From a virus (lineage: Duplodnaviria > Heunggongvirae > Uroviricota > Caudoviricetes), in IMG/VR virus record IMGVR_UViG_648276648_000006: 6,937 nt of DNA, one strand, 5' to 3'. The notes beneath the pieces were generated by a model, which was not told the origin of the DNA, did no database searches, and worked only from the letters and a program-made list of their open reading frames with translations. Below are positions 302-6,937 of the stretch, piece by piece (the first letter of the stretch is position 1; every line of letters begins with the position of its first letter). The translations under genes and the position numbers were made by a program.

Positions 302-868
302 GACGGCGATATTACAGCGACCGTAACCTTTGCCGGACTGGACTGGGAATCAAAGGCCGATGATACGAATTTTATCAAAGGCGAACCTGTGGATAGTGCA
401 GGAAAGCTACGTTATTCGTTTAAGGAGGTTTCAGCAGTAAGCCTGAATGGTGTTGCCGGAGGTAACGGTTTTTGTATCGACAGTTTTGATATTCAGTTCG
501 ATAACAAACTCCAGACACAGCGTTGTATCGGGACTGGCTCGCCTTATGCAGGAGCAAATATTCCGACTACTTTTACACCGTCCGGTACGGTGACGCTTTC
601 ATGGTCTAAAGCCGCGTGGGAAATCTGGAGTAAAACACTGACTGGAGAAACAGTTCCGTTCAGCTTCACGCTTTCGAATGGAGAGGGGGCATACACTTTC
701 AGTTTCCCGAAGGTTCAGGTGTCAGGTGAATGGCCTGATGGGGGTAATAGCGACATTATCCAGGTTCAATTGAGCATTACCGCAGCAGATGAAGCACCTA
801 CGATAACCAGAAAAAAAAATTCCCCGGCTGCCGTGATCGCAAAAGCCAGTGCTGAGGCGATTAGTTGA
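302..868 (+). pseudogene. Phage major tail (tube) protein gene, 3' portion only; 5' part displaced by the IS insertion
   Basis: Frame is open from the IS junction to TGA at 866-868 (internal GTG at 389 is the ORF-track start). Translation DGDITATVTFAGLDWESKADDTNFIKGEPVDSAGKLRYSFKEVSAV...FSFPKVQVSGEWPDGGNSDIIQVQLSITAADEAPTITRKK... is protein-like. It sits directly upstream of the G/G-T chaperone pair, where lambda-like phages place gene V. No native start or RBS exists downstream of the IS. The functional name is inferred from position, not from recognised sequence identity. Confidence 0.6.
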
Positions 869-916
869 TTTTCCGTTATTCCTCCTGTGGTACTGCCCTA
901 CAGGGGGACGCATTGA

Positions 917-1378
917 ATGAGGTTATGGATGTTTATTCTTAATCAGAAAATTATCATTGGTGGAGAACGCTGGTTTACGCCAATGAAGGACTTAAAACCT
1001 GTAGACGGGTTAAAACTGTTGGTGGCAAGCAGCGATAACGATCAGTATCGCTCCCGTAATGCATTAATCCGTCGCCACATTGAGAAAATGGATGCCAGTT
1101 TGCACGTCGGAACGAAGGAGTTTGATATTTCAAAGGTTTCCGAGGTGGATTCTGTTGATGATTTACTCATTGATAATGCCGCTCGTTATCTGCTGAAAGA
1201 CTGGAAAGGGGTTGGTGAACTGGTTAATGGTGTTGAGGTTGCACTGGAATATACGGCAGAACGAGGGATCGCGCTGCTCAAGCAGAATCCAGAGTTGTAC
1301 TGGCAGATCCTTGCAGAAGCAGCCAGCATCGCCCAGGGTAAAGAGCAGCAGAAGCAGGATACGATAAAAAAGCCATAG
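917..1378 (+). CDS. Tail assembly chaperone, gpG-like
   Basis: 153-codon ORF between the tail tube gene and the tape measure gene. GGGGGA at 903-908 is a Shine-Dalgarno 8 nt upstream of ATG 917 (alternative ATG at 929). Ends in a slippery heptamer followed by an open -1 frame, the hallmark of G/G-T chaperone pairs. Confidence 0.65.
   Translation: MRLWMFILNQKIIIGGERWFTPMKDLKPVDGLKLLVASSDNDQYRSRNALIRRHIEKMDASLHVGTKEFDISKVSEVDSVDDLLIDNAARYLLKDWKGVGELVNGVEVALEYTAERGIALLKQNPELYWQILAEAASIAQGKEQQKQDTIKKP
1366..1372 (+). promoter_or_regulatory. Candidate programmed -1 ribosomal frameshift site (slippery heptamer A_AAA_AAG)
   Basis: A AAA AAG in the G zero frame (codons AAA 1367-1369, AAG 1370-1372), 2 codons before the G stop (TAG 1376-1378). 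The -1 frame is open from 1342 to 1686. Confidence 0.6.
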
Positions 1379-1686
1379 CTGCCCAGCGGTGGTTATCGGA
1401 GTTCGGGGGAGAAAGGGGGGAAAAGGCAAGATGGAAGCGAGAAAAACTCAGGTTGCCACCGATACCGGAACCAGAAATAGACCCGGTGCTTAAGGAGTTG
1501 TTGTACGCCTATTCGGTAATATCCCGTGCCCGACGTTATGCTGGAATGGCTGGGGTGCCTTTGCCTTTATCTCTGACAGAGATAAATGAATATTTAGCCA
1601 CTCATCCGGTATTGATTGAGCGCGATGAATTTGAAGCAGTGATCTTTGCACTGGATGACCAGTATTTTCAGGAGCAGTGTGTGTAG
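1369..1686 (+). CDS. T-like extension of the tail assembly chaperone, expressed as a G-T fusion by -1 frameshifting (not independently initiated)
   Basis: The -1 frame relative to G reads ...AIAAQRWLSEFGGERGEKARWKREKLRLPPIPEPEIDPVLKELLYAYSVISRARRYAGMAGVPLPLSLTEINEYLATHPVLIERDEFEAVIFALDDQYFQEQCV, stop TAG 1684-1686. No ATG start: the ORF-track start at 1453 is TTG. Position immediately upstream of the tape measure gene matches the conserved G/G-T arrangement. Confidence 0.6.
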   Translation, partial: KAIAAQRWLSEFGGERGEKARWKREKLRLPPIPEPEIDPVLKELLYAYSVISRARRYAGMAGVPLPLSLTEINEYLATHPVLIERDEFEAVIFALDDQYFQEQCV

Positions 1687-1806
1687 TTGTTAATTACGTA
1701 CACTCTGTTACAGAGATGTGATGGTGTCTTTAATTAAATCGATGATGCTCCTGGAGAAAAGCATTGCGTGGCCTCGTAATCGCTATATCTACTATTATGT
1801 CGCCTG

Positions 1807-1830
1807 AAACCCACTTCGGTGGGCTTTTTG
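1807..1830 (+). terminator. Candidate intrinsic terminator or stable RNA hairpin in the T-H spacer
   Basis: CCCAC (1810-1814), loop TTCG (1815-1818), GTGGG (1819-1823), then C and TTTTT (1825-1829). This is a 5-bp GC stem with a UUCG tetraloop followed by a U-tract, flanked by AAA/TTT that could extend the stem. Confidence 0.4.
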
Positions 1831-1849
1831 TTGTCTGGAGTTTTAATAA

Positions 1850-4800
1850 ATGGCAGAGCAAACCTCGCGTCTCGCAATAATTATTGATAGCACTGGAGCA
1901 AAAAATAATGCTGACAATCTGACCTCCTCATTAGTCAAAATGACGCAGGCCGGGGAAACTGCTGCAAATAGCGCAGGGAAAGTGACTAAGGCAACAGAAG
2001 ATGAGAAGAACGCGCTCGCAAAATTAAAAGCAGCTATTGATCCAGTTGGTGCCGCAATTGATACTGTCGGTCGACGCTATTCTGAATTAAAGAAATTTTT
2101 CGATAAAGGGCTTATTGATAAAGAAGAATATGAATTTCTTGTCCGTAAACTTAATGAAACCACAGAGGAATTGAGCGGGGTTGCGCAAGCGCAGAGAGAA
2201 GCCGAGAAGGCCGGAAAACTTGCTGCCGCCCAGCAGGAATCGCAGGCTCAGGCCTTTCAAAGAATGCTGGACAAGATCGACCCTCTGGTTGCGGCGCTAA
2301 GAAATCTTGAACAACAGCAGGATGAACTTAATGCTGCGTTTGCATCCGGGAAAATAAATGGTTCTCAGTTTGAGAATTATAGCCGAAAAATACAGGAAAC
2401 ACGGCGAGAGCTTACCGGAGAGGCTCAGGCAGAGCGAGAAGCAGCAAAAGCGCATGATGAACAGGTTGCTGCTTTGCAACGTCTGATTGCTCAACTTGAC
2501 CCTGTCGGAACTGCTTTTAATCGTCTGGTAGAACAACAGAAACAGCTCAATGAAGCAAAAGCTAAGGGGATGCTCTCTCCTGAAATGTATGAGGAACTTT
2601 CTGGAAAACTTCGTGCTATGCGGAGTGAGCTTGAGGTTACTCAATCTCAATTAAGCAAAACCGGAATGTCGGCAAAACAAACGGCTTTTGCTATGCGCAT
2701 GTTGCCTGCACAAATGACGGATATTGTTGTTGGGTTGTCCACTGGTCAGTCGCCTTTTATGGTGTTAATGCAGCAGGGCGGCCAGCTAAAAGATATGTTC
2801 GGTGGGATTGGCCCGGCGATCAAAGGTGTTGGTTCTTATGTGCTGGGATTAATTAATCCTTTTACCCTGGCCGCAGCAGCCGTTGGCGTCTTAGGGCTGG
2901 CTTACTATAAAGGCTCTCAGGAGCAGGACGAATTTAATAAATCTCTTATTCTTACCGGAAATCAGTTGGGGACAACCAGCGGGCAATTGGCCGATATAGC
3001 TCAACGTGCCGGGAATGCGGCTGATTCGACAACTGGCGCTGCGGCGGCAGTATTAAACCAGCTTGTGCGTTCGGGAAAGGTAGCGAGCAGTTCGCTGGAG
3101 CAAGTGACGACAGCGATAGTAAAAACGAGCGAAGTAACAGGAATATCAACCGAACAACTGGTTAATGACTTCAATGAAATTGCAAAGGATCCTGTCAGTG
3201 CCATATCAAAACTTAATGATCAGTACCATTTTCTGACAATTGCGACTTATAACCAGATTAAGGCGCTACAGGATGAAGGGAACCAGCAGGAGGCCGCCCG
3301 CATTGCGACAGAAGCATACTCATCCTCAATGATCCAGCGCACCAACCAGATTAAAGAAAATCTTGGTTATCTTGAGACTGCATGGAAAGCTGTCGCAGAC
3401 TCCGCAAAATGGGCATGGGATTCCATGCTGGATATTGGCCGTGAGGCCTCCCTTGATCAAAAAATCTCAGATGTTCTCCGTCAAATTGATGAAATAGAAA
3501 AAAATACCCGACCCGGAGTTTTCGGGTTAGGTGGCATTGGAGATGGCGGAGCTCAAAATAAAAGGCTGGCACGATTAAAGCAGCAATTGGGCGTACTTCA
3601 AGCAGAAAAAATTGCTCAGGACGTACTAAATTCATCAATAAACGATTACAACAAGCGACAACAGGAAGGAATTGAACTCAGACAGAGAGCAGATGCCTTT
3701 TCAAAACAATATCAGACCCGGGAGCAGCAGAGAGCTAGTGAACTTGCAAAACTGGAAAAACTAAAGAGTCAGTATTCAAAGGAAGAATATAATAATCTTA
3801 TCGCTCAAATAAATGAGCGTTATAAAGATCCAAAGCAACCAAAGGCGAAAGGTTATTCGGATGATGCTGCCCAACGAATGATTGATCATCTGAATCAACA
3901 GAATGCGTTACTAAGTTCACAAACTGAATTAACCGTTAAATTAAGTTCCTCTGAACAGGAACTGGTTAAGTGGCGTCAGCAGATTGCCGACCTGGAGTCA
4001 CGACCGTCATCGAAATTAACCAAGGATCAGAAATCGCTTCTCTTACACCGGGAAGAAATAACCGCGTTGATGGAGAAAAATGTTGCGATTGAAAAAAATA
4101 ACAGGCTAATCAAGGAATCCGCCGAAATAGCTGCATGGCGTGATTCATTGCAGGCTTCGATTGATAATCGTCAACAGGGGTATGATATTCAGATTGCTGG
4201 TTATGGGGTTGGCGATAAAAATCAGCAACGCCAGCAGGAATTACTGCGGATTGAACGTGAATATAACAATCAGCGTCTGCAACTTGAACGTGACTATGCA
4301 GATAAATCCCGTGGGATGTCAAATCATGTTTTTCAGGAGAAAATGCAGGCTCTGAATGATGCTCTGGAACGAGAAAAAGAAATTGTCAGACAGAAAAACG
4401 AGCAGCTCGATATTCAGGCAGGAGACTGGGTTAGTGGTGCCTCCCAGGGATTCAATAACTGGCTGGATGACACTAAGGATATCAGTGAGCAGATAAAATC
4501 AACCACGACTCAGATGTTTGATGGAATGACCGATGCGCTGGGTGATTTTGTCACGACAGGCAAGGCAAATTTTCGTTCTTTCGCTACTTCCGTGATTTCG
4601 GATCTTAGTCGAATAGCATTAAAGGCTTCAATTACTCGGATTTTCGACAGCATTAGTAACAGTTCTTCGGGGGGGATTTTAGGAACTATCGGGAGTGCTA
4701 TTAGTAAATTTATTCCGAATGCAAAGGGCGGTGTTTATGAGTCTCCGTCATTGAACACGTATTCGAACGGTATTTATGATTCCCCGCAATTTTTTGCTTT

Positions 4801-5083
4801 TGCAAAAGGGGCTGGTGTTTTTGGTGAGGCTGGTCCGGAAGCCATTATGCCATTAACACGAACTTCCGATGGTTCTCTTGGTGTCAGAGCTATTAATAGT
4901 AAAAGTGGTAATGGAGGCGGAGATATTACCTATGCCCCTGTATACCAAATCACTATTCAAAATGACGGCCAGAATGGAGAGATTGGCCCTCAGGCAATAA
5001 AAGCACTTATGGGGATGGTTGATCAGCGGGTGCAGGGCAATCTGTTAAATATGCGACGTGATGGGGGAATGTTAAGTGGCTAA
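1850..5083 (+). CDS. H: Tail length tape measure protein (lambda gpH family), 1077 aa
   Basis: GGAG at 1837-1840 upstream of ATG 1850. Translation contains ...[41 protein letters not shown]... and C-terminal ...[20 protein letters not shown]...[10 protein letters not shown], matching lambda gpH motifs (MRMLPAQFTD...GGQSPWLILLQQGGQVKDSFGG; ...NNDGTNGQIGPAALKAV...MRDGGLFSG). Long coiled-coil-like, Q/E/K-rich central region is typical of tape measure proteins. The stop overlaps the M start. Confidence 0.95.
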
Positions 5084-5408
5084 TACGGAAGAATTTCACT
5101 GGTTACCAGAGGATGGAATGAAAACAGAAAATAAACCATCGATAAAAACTGTAAGATTTGGCGATGGTTATGAGCAACGAAGTCCAAATGGACTTAATCA
5201 TTCTCTGCGCGTTTTCACCTGTGATTTCAAAGTTGAGGCGAATGAACGTGATTCATTTGAAAAATTTTTAGCCCGGCATGAAGGCTATAAATCTTTTTTT
5301 GGCGCCCGCCTGGTATTAACAGAAAAATCAGAGTGGTGTGTCGAACGTGGTCAGCGACAGAACATATCACCTATACCGATTTTTCGTGTCAGTTTGACGA
5401 AGTGGTGA
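5076..5408 (+). CDS. M: Minor tail protein M (lambda gpM family), reading frame disrupted near the 3' end by an apparent 1-nt deletion in a T7 run
   Basis: GTG 5076 follows an in-frame TAA and overlaps the H stop by 8 nt. N-terminal part ...[35 protein letters not shown]...[14 protein letters not shown] matches lambda gpM (FRWKVKPGM...VRKVRFGDGYSQRAPAGLN...FLEEHGGWKSF). After the T-run at 5294-5300 the gpM-like C-terminus ([39 protein letters not shown]) is in the other frame and stops at TGA 5411-5413. Confidence 0.85.
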
Positions 5409-5412
5409 TCTG

Positions 5413-6111
5413 ATGCAGGACATACAACAGGAAACGCTGAATGAATGCATTCGTGCGGAGCAGTCGGCCAGCGTGGTGCTCTGGGAAATCGACCTGACCG
5501 AGGTAGGCGGGGATCGCTACTTTTTCTGCAATGAGCAGAACGAGAAAGGAGAGTCTGTCACCTGGCAGAGTCGGCAGTATCAGGCCTATCCCATTCAGGG
5601 GAGTGGATTTGAGATGAACGGCAAAGGTGCCAGTGCAAGGCCAACGCTGAAAGTCTCTAATCTGCACGGCATGGTCACCGGGATGGCGGAAGACCTGCAG
5701 AGTCTGGTCGGCGGAACGGTGGTCAGGCGTAAGGTTTACGCCCGTTTTCTGGATGCGGTGAACTTCGTCAACGGAAACAGTGACGCCGATCCGGAGCAGG
5801 AGGTGATCAGCCGCTGGCGTATTGAGCAGTGCAGCGAACTGAGCGCGGTCAGTGCCTCCTTTGTACTGTCCACGCCGACGGAAACGGACGGCGCTGTTTT
5901 TCCGGGGCGCATCATGCTTGCTAATACCTGCACCTGGACCTATCGCGGTGATGAGTGCGGTTATCACGGTCCGGCGGTCGCGGATGAATATGACCAGCCG
6001 ACATCCGAAATCACGAAGGATAAATGCAGCAAATGCCTGAGTGGCTGTAAGTTCCGCAATAATGTCGGCAACTTTGGCGGCTTCCTTTCCATTAACAAAC
6101 TTTCGCAGTAA
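5413..6111 (+). CDS. L: Minor tail protein L (lambda gpL), 232 aa
   Basis: Translation MQDIQQETLNECIRAEQSASVVLWEIDLTEVGGDRYFFCNEQNEKGE...CSKCLSGCKFRNNVGNFGGFLSINKLSQ is near-identical to lambda gpL as I recall it, with the same length. ATG 5413 overlaps the inferred true M stop (TGATG). Confidence 0.96.
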   Translation: MQDIQQETLNECIRAEQSASVVLWEIDLTEVGGDRYFFCNEQNEKGESVTWQSRQYQAYPIQGSGFEMNGKGASARPTLKVSNLHGMVTGMAEDLQSLVGGTVVRRKVYARFLDAVNFVNGNSDADPEQEVISRWRIEQCSELSAVSASFVLSTPTETDGAVFPGRIMLANTCTWTYRGDECGYHGPAVADEYDQPTSEITKDKCSKCLSGCKFRNNVGNFGGFLSINKLSQ

Positions 6112-6116
6112 ATCCC

Positions 6117-6860
6117 ATGACAGAGACAGAATCAGCGATTCTGGCGCACGCCCGGCGATGTGCGCCAGCGGAGTCGTGCGGCTTCGTGGTGAGAACGCCG
6201 GAAGGGGAAAGATATTTTCCCTGCGTGAATATCTCCGGTGAGCCGGAGGCGTATTTCCGGATGGCTCCGGAGGACTGGCTGCGGGCAGAAATGCAGGGTG
6301 AGATTGTGGCGCTGGTCCACAGTCACCCCGGTGCTCTGCCCTGGCTGAGTGAGGCCGACCGGCGGCTGCAGGTGCAGAGTGATTTGCCGTGGTGGCTGGT
6401 CTGCCGGGGGGCGATTCACAAGTTCCGCTGTGTGCCACATCTTACCGGGCGGCGCTTTGAGCACGGGGTGACGGACTGTTACACGCTGTTCCGGGATGCT
6501 TACCATCTGGCGGGAATTGAGATGCCTGATTTTCATCGTGAGGATGACTGGTGGCGTCACGGTCAGAATCTCTATCTGGATAATATGGAGGCAACGGGGC
6601 TGTATCAGGTGCCGTTGTCAGCGGCGCAGCCGGGCGATGTGCTGCTGTGCTGTTTTGGTTCATCGGTGCCGAATCATGCCGCTATTTACTGCGGCGACGG
6701 CGAGCTGCTGCACCATATTCCTGAACAACTGAGCAAACGAGAGAGGTATACCGACAAATGGCAGCGACGCACACACTCCCTCTGGCGTCACCGGGCATGG
6801 CACGTATCTGCCTTTACGGGGATTTGCAACGATTTGGCCGCCGCATCGACCTTCGTGTGA
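6117..6860 (+). CDS. K: Tail assembly protein K (lambda gpK family), with JAMM/MPN metalloprotease-like and NlpC/P60 domains
   Basis: Translation MTETESAILAHARRCAPAESCGFVV...EIVALVHSHPGALPWLSEAD (JAMM motif HxHx7Sx2D, His codons at 6318-6326)...GVTDCYTLF (NlpC/P60 Cys, about 6477-6479)...VPNHAAIY. Near-identical to lambda gpK as I recall it. Starts 5 nt after the L stop. Confidence 0.95.
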   Translation: MTETESAILAHARRCAPAESCGFVVRTPEGERYFPCVNISGEPEAYFRMAPEDWLRAEMQGEIVALVHSHPGALPWLSEADRRLQVQSDLPWWLVCRGAIHKFRCVPHLTGRRFEHGVTDCYTLFRDAYHLAGIEMPDFHREDDWWRHGQNLYLDNMEATGLYQVPLSAAQPGDVLLCCFGSSVPNHAAIYCGDGELLHHIPEQLSKRERYTDKWQRRTHSLWRHRAWHVSAFTGICNDLAAASTFV

Positions 6861-6937
6861 AAACGGGGCCGAAGCCATCCGGGCGCTGGCCATGCAGATC
6901 CCGGCGTTTCGTCAGAAACTGAGCGATGGCTGGTATC
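6758..6937 (+). CDS. I: Tail assembly protein I (lambda gpI family), N-terminal part; frame disrupted at a G4 run; 3' end outside window
   Basis: ATG 6758 gives MAATHTLPLASPGMARICLYGDLQRFGRRIDLRVKTG, matching the lambda gpI N-terminus, and overlaps K by 103 nt. After GGGG at 6865-6868 the gpI-like sequence AEAIRALAMQIPAFRQKLSDGWY continues in the +1 frame, while the starting frame hits TGA at 6920-6922. Confidence 0.85.

Follow-up and report, generated by a model that had tools for sequence, protein, structure and literature searches.

Gene I and the G run at the end of the contig

The stretch of DNA analysed here, called the window, is 6,937 nt long. It makes up an entire contig of the draft genome of Escherichia coli M718 and is an exact substring of scaffold GL884111.1 (GCA_000176575.2). 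The element in which it lies is a Rac-type lambdoid prophage with trkG/TrkH, a P22-like capsid, a ydaY-type chaperone, a tape measure gene, the tail genes M-L-K-I-J, Lom, and an S74 tail fibre. All features of the window described below are on the plus strand. Gene K (6117 to 6860) is intact, and its 247-aa product is a JAB/MPN plus NlpC/P60 peptidase, as judged from Pfam and from comparison with lambda. Gene I, for a homologue of the lambda tail assembly protein gpI, is positioned as expected between K and J. Its 5' end is inside K, and J comes after a gap in the scaffold.

As deposited, gene I is broken (6758 to 6922), an assignment that rests on identity to lambda and on PF06805. Translated over 6758 to 6937, the frame of the ATG at 6758 reads MAATHTLPLASPGMARICLYGDLQRFGRRIDLRVKTGPKPSGRWPCRSRRFVRN*, with a TGA stop at 6920 to 6922. 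It begins with 37 correct residues (MAATHTLPLASPGMARICLYGDLQRFGRRIDLRVKTG) and continues with 17 out-of-frame residues (PKPSGRWPCRSRRFVRN) up to that stop. A full-length gene I frame has about 215 to 223 codons, whereas this one has 54. A run of four Gs lies at 6865 to 6868 (GGGG), 5 nt past the TGA of gene K (6858 to 6860). From 6868, the +1 frame translates as AEAIRALAMQIPAFRQKLSDGWY. This is the continuation of gene I, codons 38 to 60 (6868 to 6937), and it ends with the contig, a 676-N scaffold gap beginning at the next base.

The initial annotation, made from the sequence of the window, had proposed that the ATG at 6758 opens the N terminus of lambda gpI and that its frame then meets the TGA at 6920 to 6922. 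It had also proposed that the +1 frame at 6868 is the gpI continuation and that one extra G in the run would repair the frame. All of this was borne out. Residues 1 to 37 of the broken ORF are a 100% match to lambda gpI (NC_001416, in which I is 14773 to 15444), and the continuation is read where it was placed. Adding one G yields 60 residues that match the intact gene I of E. coli FDAARGOS_1058 throughout and lambda gpI at 97% identity. In a DNA alignment, the run is GGGGG in lambda, FDAARGOS_1058, and CFSAN004176, but it is GGGG in the window. The run is the site of a one-base deficit.

The broken 54-aa ORF still matched the family profile PF06805 (Lambda_tail_I), with 24.1 bits against a cutoff of 23.8. 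The score rose to 50.9 bits for the repaired 60 aa, and the intact protein of a relative scored 85.4 bits over profile positions 2 to 83 of 83. The 54-aa product, looked up as an exact sequence, is not on record, but this is a weak test because an ORF nested in K is unlikely to be called.

The likeness to lambda extends to gene K and to the arrangement of the genes. The prophage of the window has the same M-L-K-I-J order, its K has the JAB plus NlpC/P60 architecture, and I and K overlap by 103 nt in both (in lambda, K is 14276 to 14875 and I is 14773 to 15444). The differences are that the deposited frame is broken at codon 38, that a scaffold gap takes the place of everything past codon 60, and that the rest of the prophage is Rac-type, with a P22-like capsid, a DUF4055 portal, and ydaY and trkG as neighbours. 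Both gene I and its host element are ordinary, the former as an ortholog of lambda gpI and the latter as a defective prophage of the Rac type.

The start of gene I is annotated in three ways in public records. The 215-aa form starts at the ATG that gives the 103-nt overlap with K. A 182-aa form starts at a GTG, which in the window is at 6857 to 6859; it is codon 34 of I, overlaps the K stop as GTGA, and is used by PGAP as an alternative start in several genomes. A 170-aa form starts at an internal ATG (6892 to 6894 in the window), which is Met46 of intact I and the sole +1-frame start downstream of the run in the window.

Inactivating lesions elsewhere in the prophage

The window begins with the right end of an IS3-family element of the IS1203/IS629 type (1 to 301). 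Its inverted repeat CGGGGCGGTTCA is at 290 to 301 and is followed by the target duplicate GAC at 302 to 304. The left junction is at 3837 to 3840 on a fragment of the M718 scaffold (L004), and the ends of the element are the inverted repeats TGAACCGCCCCGG... and ...CGGGGCGGTTCA, flanked by the 3-bp GAC duplication. The insertion splits the tail tube gene, of which a 3' remnant is left in the window as a 159-aa ORF (389 to 868). The target site is intact in FDAARGOS_1058 and other relatives, and among all of the sequences that we retrieved the insertion is private to M718. Downstream, the tape measure gene (1850 to 5083, 1077 aa) is intact, and its protein is identical in many E. coli prophages.

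A second lesion, in the large terminase gene, lies upstream of the G run on the M718 scaffold, at a distance of about 15 kb. There, an added G (GG to GGG, at position 1245 of L025) splits the gene into 283/280-aa and 164-aa pieces. We considered whether this frameshift might be an error of the M718 assembly, and we rejected that explanation, as the same pieces are common to more than 20 contigs of other projects that were assembled independently. The +G allele was found in none of 5,426 complete E. coli genomes, of which 694 had the intact 40-mer. The allele marks a prophage lineage that is represented only in drafts.

The genes for the ydaY-type chaperone, TrkH/trkG, the tape measure, Lom, and the S74 fibre occur in the order seen in prophages annotated as Rac-like in hundreds of E. 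coli genomes. What sets the M718 copy apart is its own set of lesions: the IS1203/IS629-type insertion, the inherited terminase +G, and two homopolymer calls, T7 in gene M (described below) and G4 in gene I. Because of the insertion in the tube gene, with its target duplication, and the inherited terminase frameshift, the prophage is truly defective, independently of the G4 call. The initial annotation had suggested a decaying cryptic prophage. That description fits the element as a whole, but it is not the likelier cause of the G4 itself.

Gene M (5076 to 5408) is frameshifted at a run of seven Ts (5294 to 5300) that has eight Ts in an intact relative, as found by alignment and with Pfam. With T7, the Pfam match falls from 108/108 profile positions to 83/108. 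The frameshifted protein of the window is on record as EGI22786.1, "phage minor tail protein [Escherichia coli M718]." A 41-mer over the T run was uninformative, because the low-complexity filter of BLAST masks the Ts and a T8 control also gave 0 matches, and we used a 211-nt query instead. Of 720 complete genomes, this query showed T7 in 1, that of strain Z142-7, which has a haplotype about 1% away and in which M is annotated as frameshifted. On the tail haplotype of M718, T7 was otherwise present only in error-laden contigs, where the G7 and A7 runs were undercalled too. The clean T7 carriers have a haplotype about 1% away, and all of them have an intact gene I, including contigs with the exact T7 M allele of M718.

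Hundreds of contigs encode frameshifted M products. The T8 run is therefore a hot spot, whether of real slippage, of miscalls, or of both. These hundreds of contigs, together with the clean T7 carriers about 1% away, weaken the case for the M frameshift as an error of the M718 assembly. The break in gene I had been presented initially as a second homopolymer-associated disruption in the same operon. The other one, in M, is there, T7 against T8, but as an argument about the G run it is weaker than it appears, because T7 carriers are either error-laden or of another haplotype with an intact I.

The ydaY-type chaperone ORF (917 to 1378) ends at a canonical slippery heptamer, A_AAA_AAG (1366 to 1372). 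In the -1 frame, there is no stop between 1342 and a 77-aa ORF (1453 to 1686), and RefSeq annotates two ORFs here, ydaY and a hypothetical protein. The arrangement is the usual G/GT-type programmed -1 frameshift of tail assembly chaperones.

Run lengths of the G tract in other genomes

We searched for the four-G allele with a 41-mer centred on the run, a design that forces every 28-base BLAST seed across the run. The G4 41-mer had 0 matches in the 5,426 complete E. coli genomes, whereas the G5 control matched at 1,961 places in 1,602 of them. G4 was also absent from 50,697 phage records, its exact string was not found in metagenome contigs, and species-representative genomes gave no homologous match.

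A scan of IMG/VR with a G4 22-mer (GTGTGAAAACGGGGCCGAAGCC) gave six matches, of which only one (L019) was homologous. The other five (L014 to L018) were rejected as chance matches. They belong to an unrelated phage group and fall in a terminator-like hairpin, AAAACGGGGCCGAAGCCCCGTTTT. Scans with short exact patterns need a check of context, as this case illustrates. The homologous match, IMGVR_UViG_2728369393_000013, has a finished twin in CFSAN004176 (L020). The two differ at four positions in 6.35 kb, all of them in G runs (three one-G deletions and one G-to-T change). A deletion and an IS600 insertion close by also truncate the gene I of this prophage. G4 occurs in L033 as well, in which 3.5 kb of sequence contain six one-base deletions.

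The 170-aa form of I, starting at the ATG equivalent to 6892, is the product expected to be annotated on a G4 template. It was found on 31 contigs, and the DNA of these was then read. The 170-aa form was only partly diagnostic of G4, because several carriers have G5 and owe the short form to the annotator's choice of start. Others did have a different run length. L046 (GCA_052593075.1, with six similar places) has G4, and it differs from FDAARGOS_1058 at 2 of 11,067 positions, namely, the G4 itself and one substitution. It keeps intact T8, G7, and A7 runs and intact genes for the tube, the tape measure, M, L, and K. L039 (GCA_053380185.1) differs from FDAARGOS_1058 by G4 only, with 0 substitutions, and L044 (GCA_965255075.1) has G6 at the run. 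Thus, where the tail haplotype is the same at each of the 6,636 compared positions, the run is commonly G5 but is G4 in L046 and its six similar places and in L039, and G6 in L044. Length variants amount to about 10 of some 1,600 contigs with this I allele. In other lineages, the run has in-frame variants, AGGGG or GGGGT.

Judging from these assemblies, the G5-to-G4 deletion evidently occurs as a genuine allele of this tail haplotype, because L046, which is otherwise clean, is hard to explain as an error. The same could hold for M718. The G4 of the window would then be a real one-base slippage deletion that makes gene I a pseudogene, a neutral lesion in an already inactivated Rac-type prophage. 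The clean assemblies in which G4 is the only indel argue for this, as does the G6 of L044, which shows that the run mutates in nature. However, descent does not obviously connect M718 to the clean carriers. In the head region, L046 is the same as FDAARGOS_1058 (L002), whereas M718 is about 11 substitutions from FDAARGOS_1058. Because these head haplotypes differ, the G4 of L046 and that of M718 are not obviously shared by descent. The rarity of the allele, as part of the roughly 10 in 1,600, also counts against a real deletion in M718, and so does the finding that relatives with M718's exact T7 allele of M all keep an intact I.

The presence of G4, G5, and G6 on one identical haplotype, in a run at the very start of I and just after the K stop, is also what might be seen if the run were a functional switch. 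It could act through a programmed ribosomal frameshift that rescues I from a G4 template or as a phase-variable tract controlling tail assembly. However, it is the in-frame G5 that is conserved, at its 1,961 places in complete genomes, with G4 in none, and the length variants are rare. Known contingency tracts are far longer than 4 to 6 Gs, and the run is too short by that standard. In addition, the operon has its actual programmed frameshift elsewhere, at the A_AAA_AAG of the chaperone. The conservation of the in-frame G5 and the rarity of the variants effectively refute a functional switch. We also consider it very improbable that the G5 tract is a genuine recurrent slippage hot spot at which G4 and G6 null alleles form a low-frequency on/off lesion of Rac-type tail assembly, with M718 as one instance.

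The four-G call in the M718 draft

The contig ends of the M718 draft are close to the run. N gaps flank the window on both sides, with about 700 N before base 1 and 676 N right after 6937, and the G run is 69 bases from the 3' end of the contig and its gap, a location where confidence in a base call is low. The rest of gene I and the first ~120 codons of J are missing because the window ends at this gap. Within the 20-kb prophage stretch there are three gaps, one of which, 4.7 kb upstream, lacks about 85 nt of a single-copy head gene. Three gaps, with one in a single-copy gene, suggest thin coverage.

A second record, OU349840.1 (GCA_910664795.1), is presented as a 5.44-Mb "chromosome" and might be taken for an independent sequence of this lineage. 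We rejected it as such. Its contigs are identical to those of M718 and were re-scaffolded, with N gaps at the same places but resized. It is a duplicate that is easily mistaken for independent confirmation.

One paper describes M718 as an Australian animal isolate with a genome from the Broad Institute collection. A literature search found no paper citing the M718 assembly accessions. Some of the longer runs in this contig are called correctly, including A9 at 811 to 819, A7 at 3498 and 4092, and G7 at 4669. Therefore, the assembly is not grossly error-prone, which favors a real deletion. The Broad E. coli drafts of 2009 to 2010, M718 among them, were presumably 454/Newbler assemblies. The A9 run at 811 to 819, in the tube remnant, is one or two As short in L051, L058, L060, and L063, and M718 agrees there with the finished genome. 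This is another variable or miscall-prone run.

Comparison with the nearest sequences showed the kind of change that separates M718 from its relatives. From 302 to 6937, the window has 0 substitutions over 6,636 nt relative to the finished FDAARGOS_1058 and two one-base homopolymer deletions, T8 to T7 and G5 to G4. The latter is thus a change in the length of a mononucleotide run in otherwise identical sequence, as expected of an artefact. For the 17 kb upstream, we used L051, L053, and L054, which have the same terminase frameshift and agree with M718 at every substitution site over 16 to 20 kb. Here again there were 0 substitutions, and the private changes of M718 were the IS and a T5-to-T6 change in the loop of an intergenic hairpin. 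Over the total of 23,852 nt, which has 140 runs of at least 5, we counted 0 substitutions but 3 homopolymer indels, an indel rate of about 2% per run.

Natural divergence in E. coli has about ten substitutions per indel, as known from mutation-accumulation spectra. Three homopolymer indels with no substitutions do not resemble this ratio. Such a spectrum is more suggestive of errors in the consensus than of evolution, and it counts against a real deletion. The excess of private homopolymer indels over substitutions (3 versus 0) depends on the T and G states of the nearest relatives, which were arrived at indirectly. These relatives include GCA_902843945.1 (contig CADGTO010000037.1) and GCA_902846375.1 (contig CADHDB010000026.1). 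Neither the 170-aa I nor a frameshifted M product was found on the 59-kb and 103-kb contigs of the nearest relatives, which is indirect evidence for G5 and T8 in them. If so, the nearest relatives are without the G4, a further point against a real deletion. A look-up of the tape measure for these relatives returned only lineages with an intact terminase, and in a search with the exact J allele of M718 the representatives were at least 11 residues away.

Taken with the contig-end site in a gapped draft and the absence of G4 from complete genomes, this spectrum tips the balance. In our estimate, there is about a two-in-three chance that the G4 of M718 is a G5 homopolymer called one base short in a poor-quality part of the draft and not a property of the organism, and the true sequence at the run is probably GGGGG, as in relatives. 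Reads prone to homopolymer error, thin or mixed coverage at the contig edge, or both could have left the consensus one G short. The edge in question is inside the multi-copy lambdoid K-I-J region. A miscall is also favored because G4 arises in other error-laden assemblies, L019 and L033. The one-base change near a contig end, accompanied by other private homopolymer indels and no substitutions, resembles the errors of flow-based or long-read draft assemblies, and L019, L033, and Logan contigs behave in the same way. It differs from such errors in that the longer runs of the M718 contig are correct and in that apparently clean assemblies have G4 too.

Systematic homopolymer miscalls in the assembly were the other explanation offered in the initial annotation. 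The contig edge, the indel spectrum, and the rarity of the allele make a miscall the likelier reading of the G4, although the same G4 in the clean L046 and L039 and the correct A9, A7, and G7 runs stand against it. A real deletion in M718 keeps some support from elsewhere in the element. The IS insertion is real, given its GAC duplication, the terminase +G is inherited, being present in more than 20 contigs, and a frameshift in I would be costless because the prophage is already dead. Even so, with the spectrum of private changes and a position 69 nt from the contig end against it, we regard a real deletion in M718 as possible but doubtful. The framing in terms of decay or miscall was right, in that decay is true of the element and a miscall is likelier for the G4.

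A frameshift in a well-known phage gene, in a gap-ridden draft and 69 bases from a contig end, should not be taken as biology without the reads. The analysis had three by-products: the source scaffold of the window, GL884111.1 of M718; the status of OU349840.1 as a duplicate; and the low-frequency G4 and G6 alleles in otherwise identical prophages. The lesion, whether a homopolymer consensus error or a frameshift pseudogene, is of an ordinary kind, and there is nothing novel at this site. If the G4 of M718 is real, the product of I would end after 37 correct residues, inside the N-terminal PF06805 domain (profile positions 2 to 83), and a restart at Met46 (6892) would lose over half of that domain. 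Such an allele would be null for I, in a prophage already unable to make tails or to package DNA. It would be one more neutral lesion of a Rac-type prophage, adding nothing to what is known of gpI or of prophage decay.
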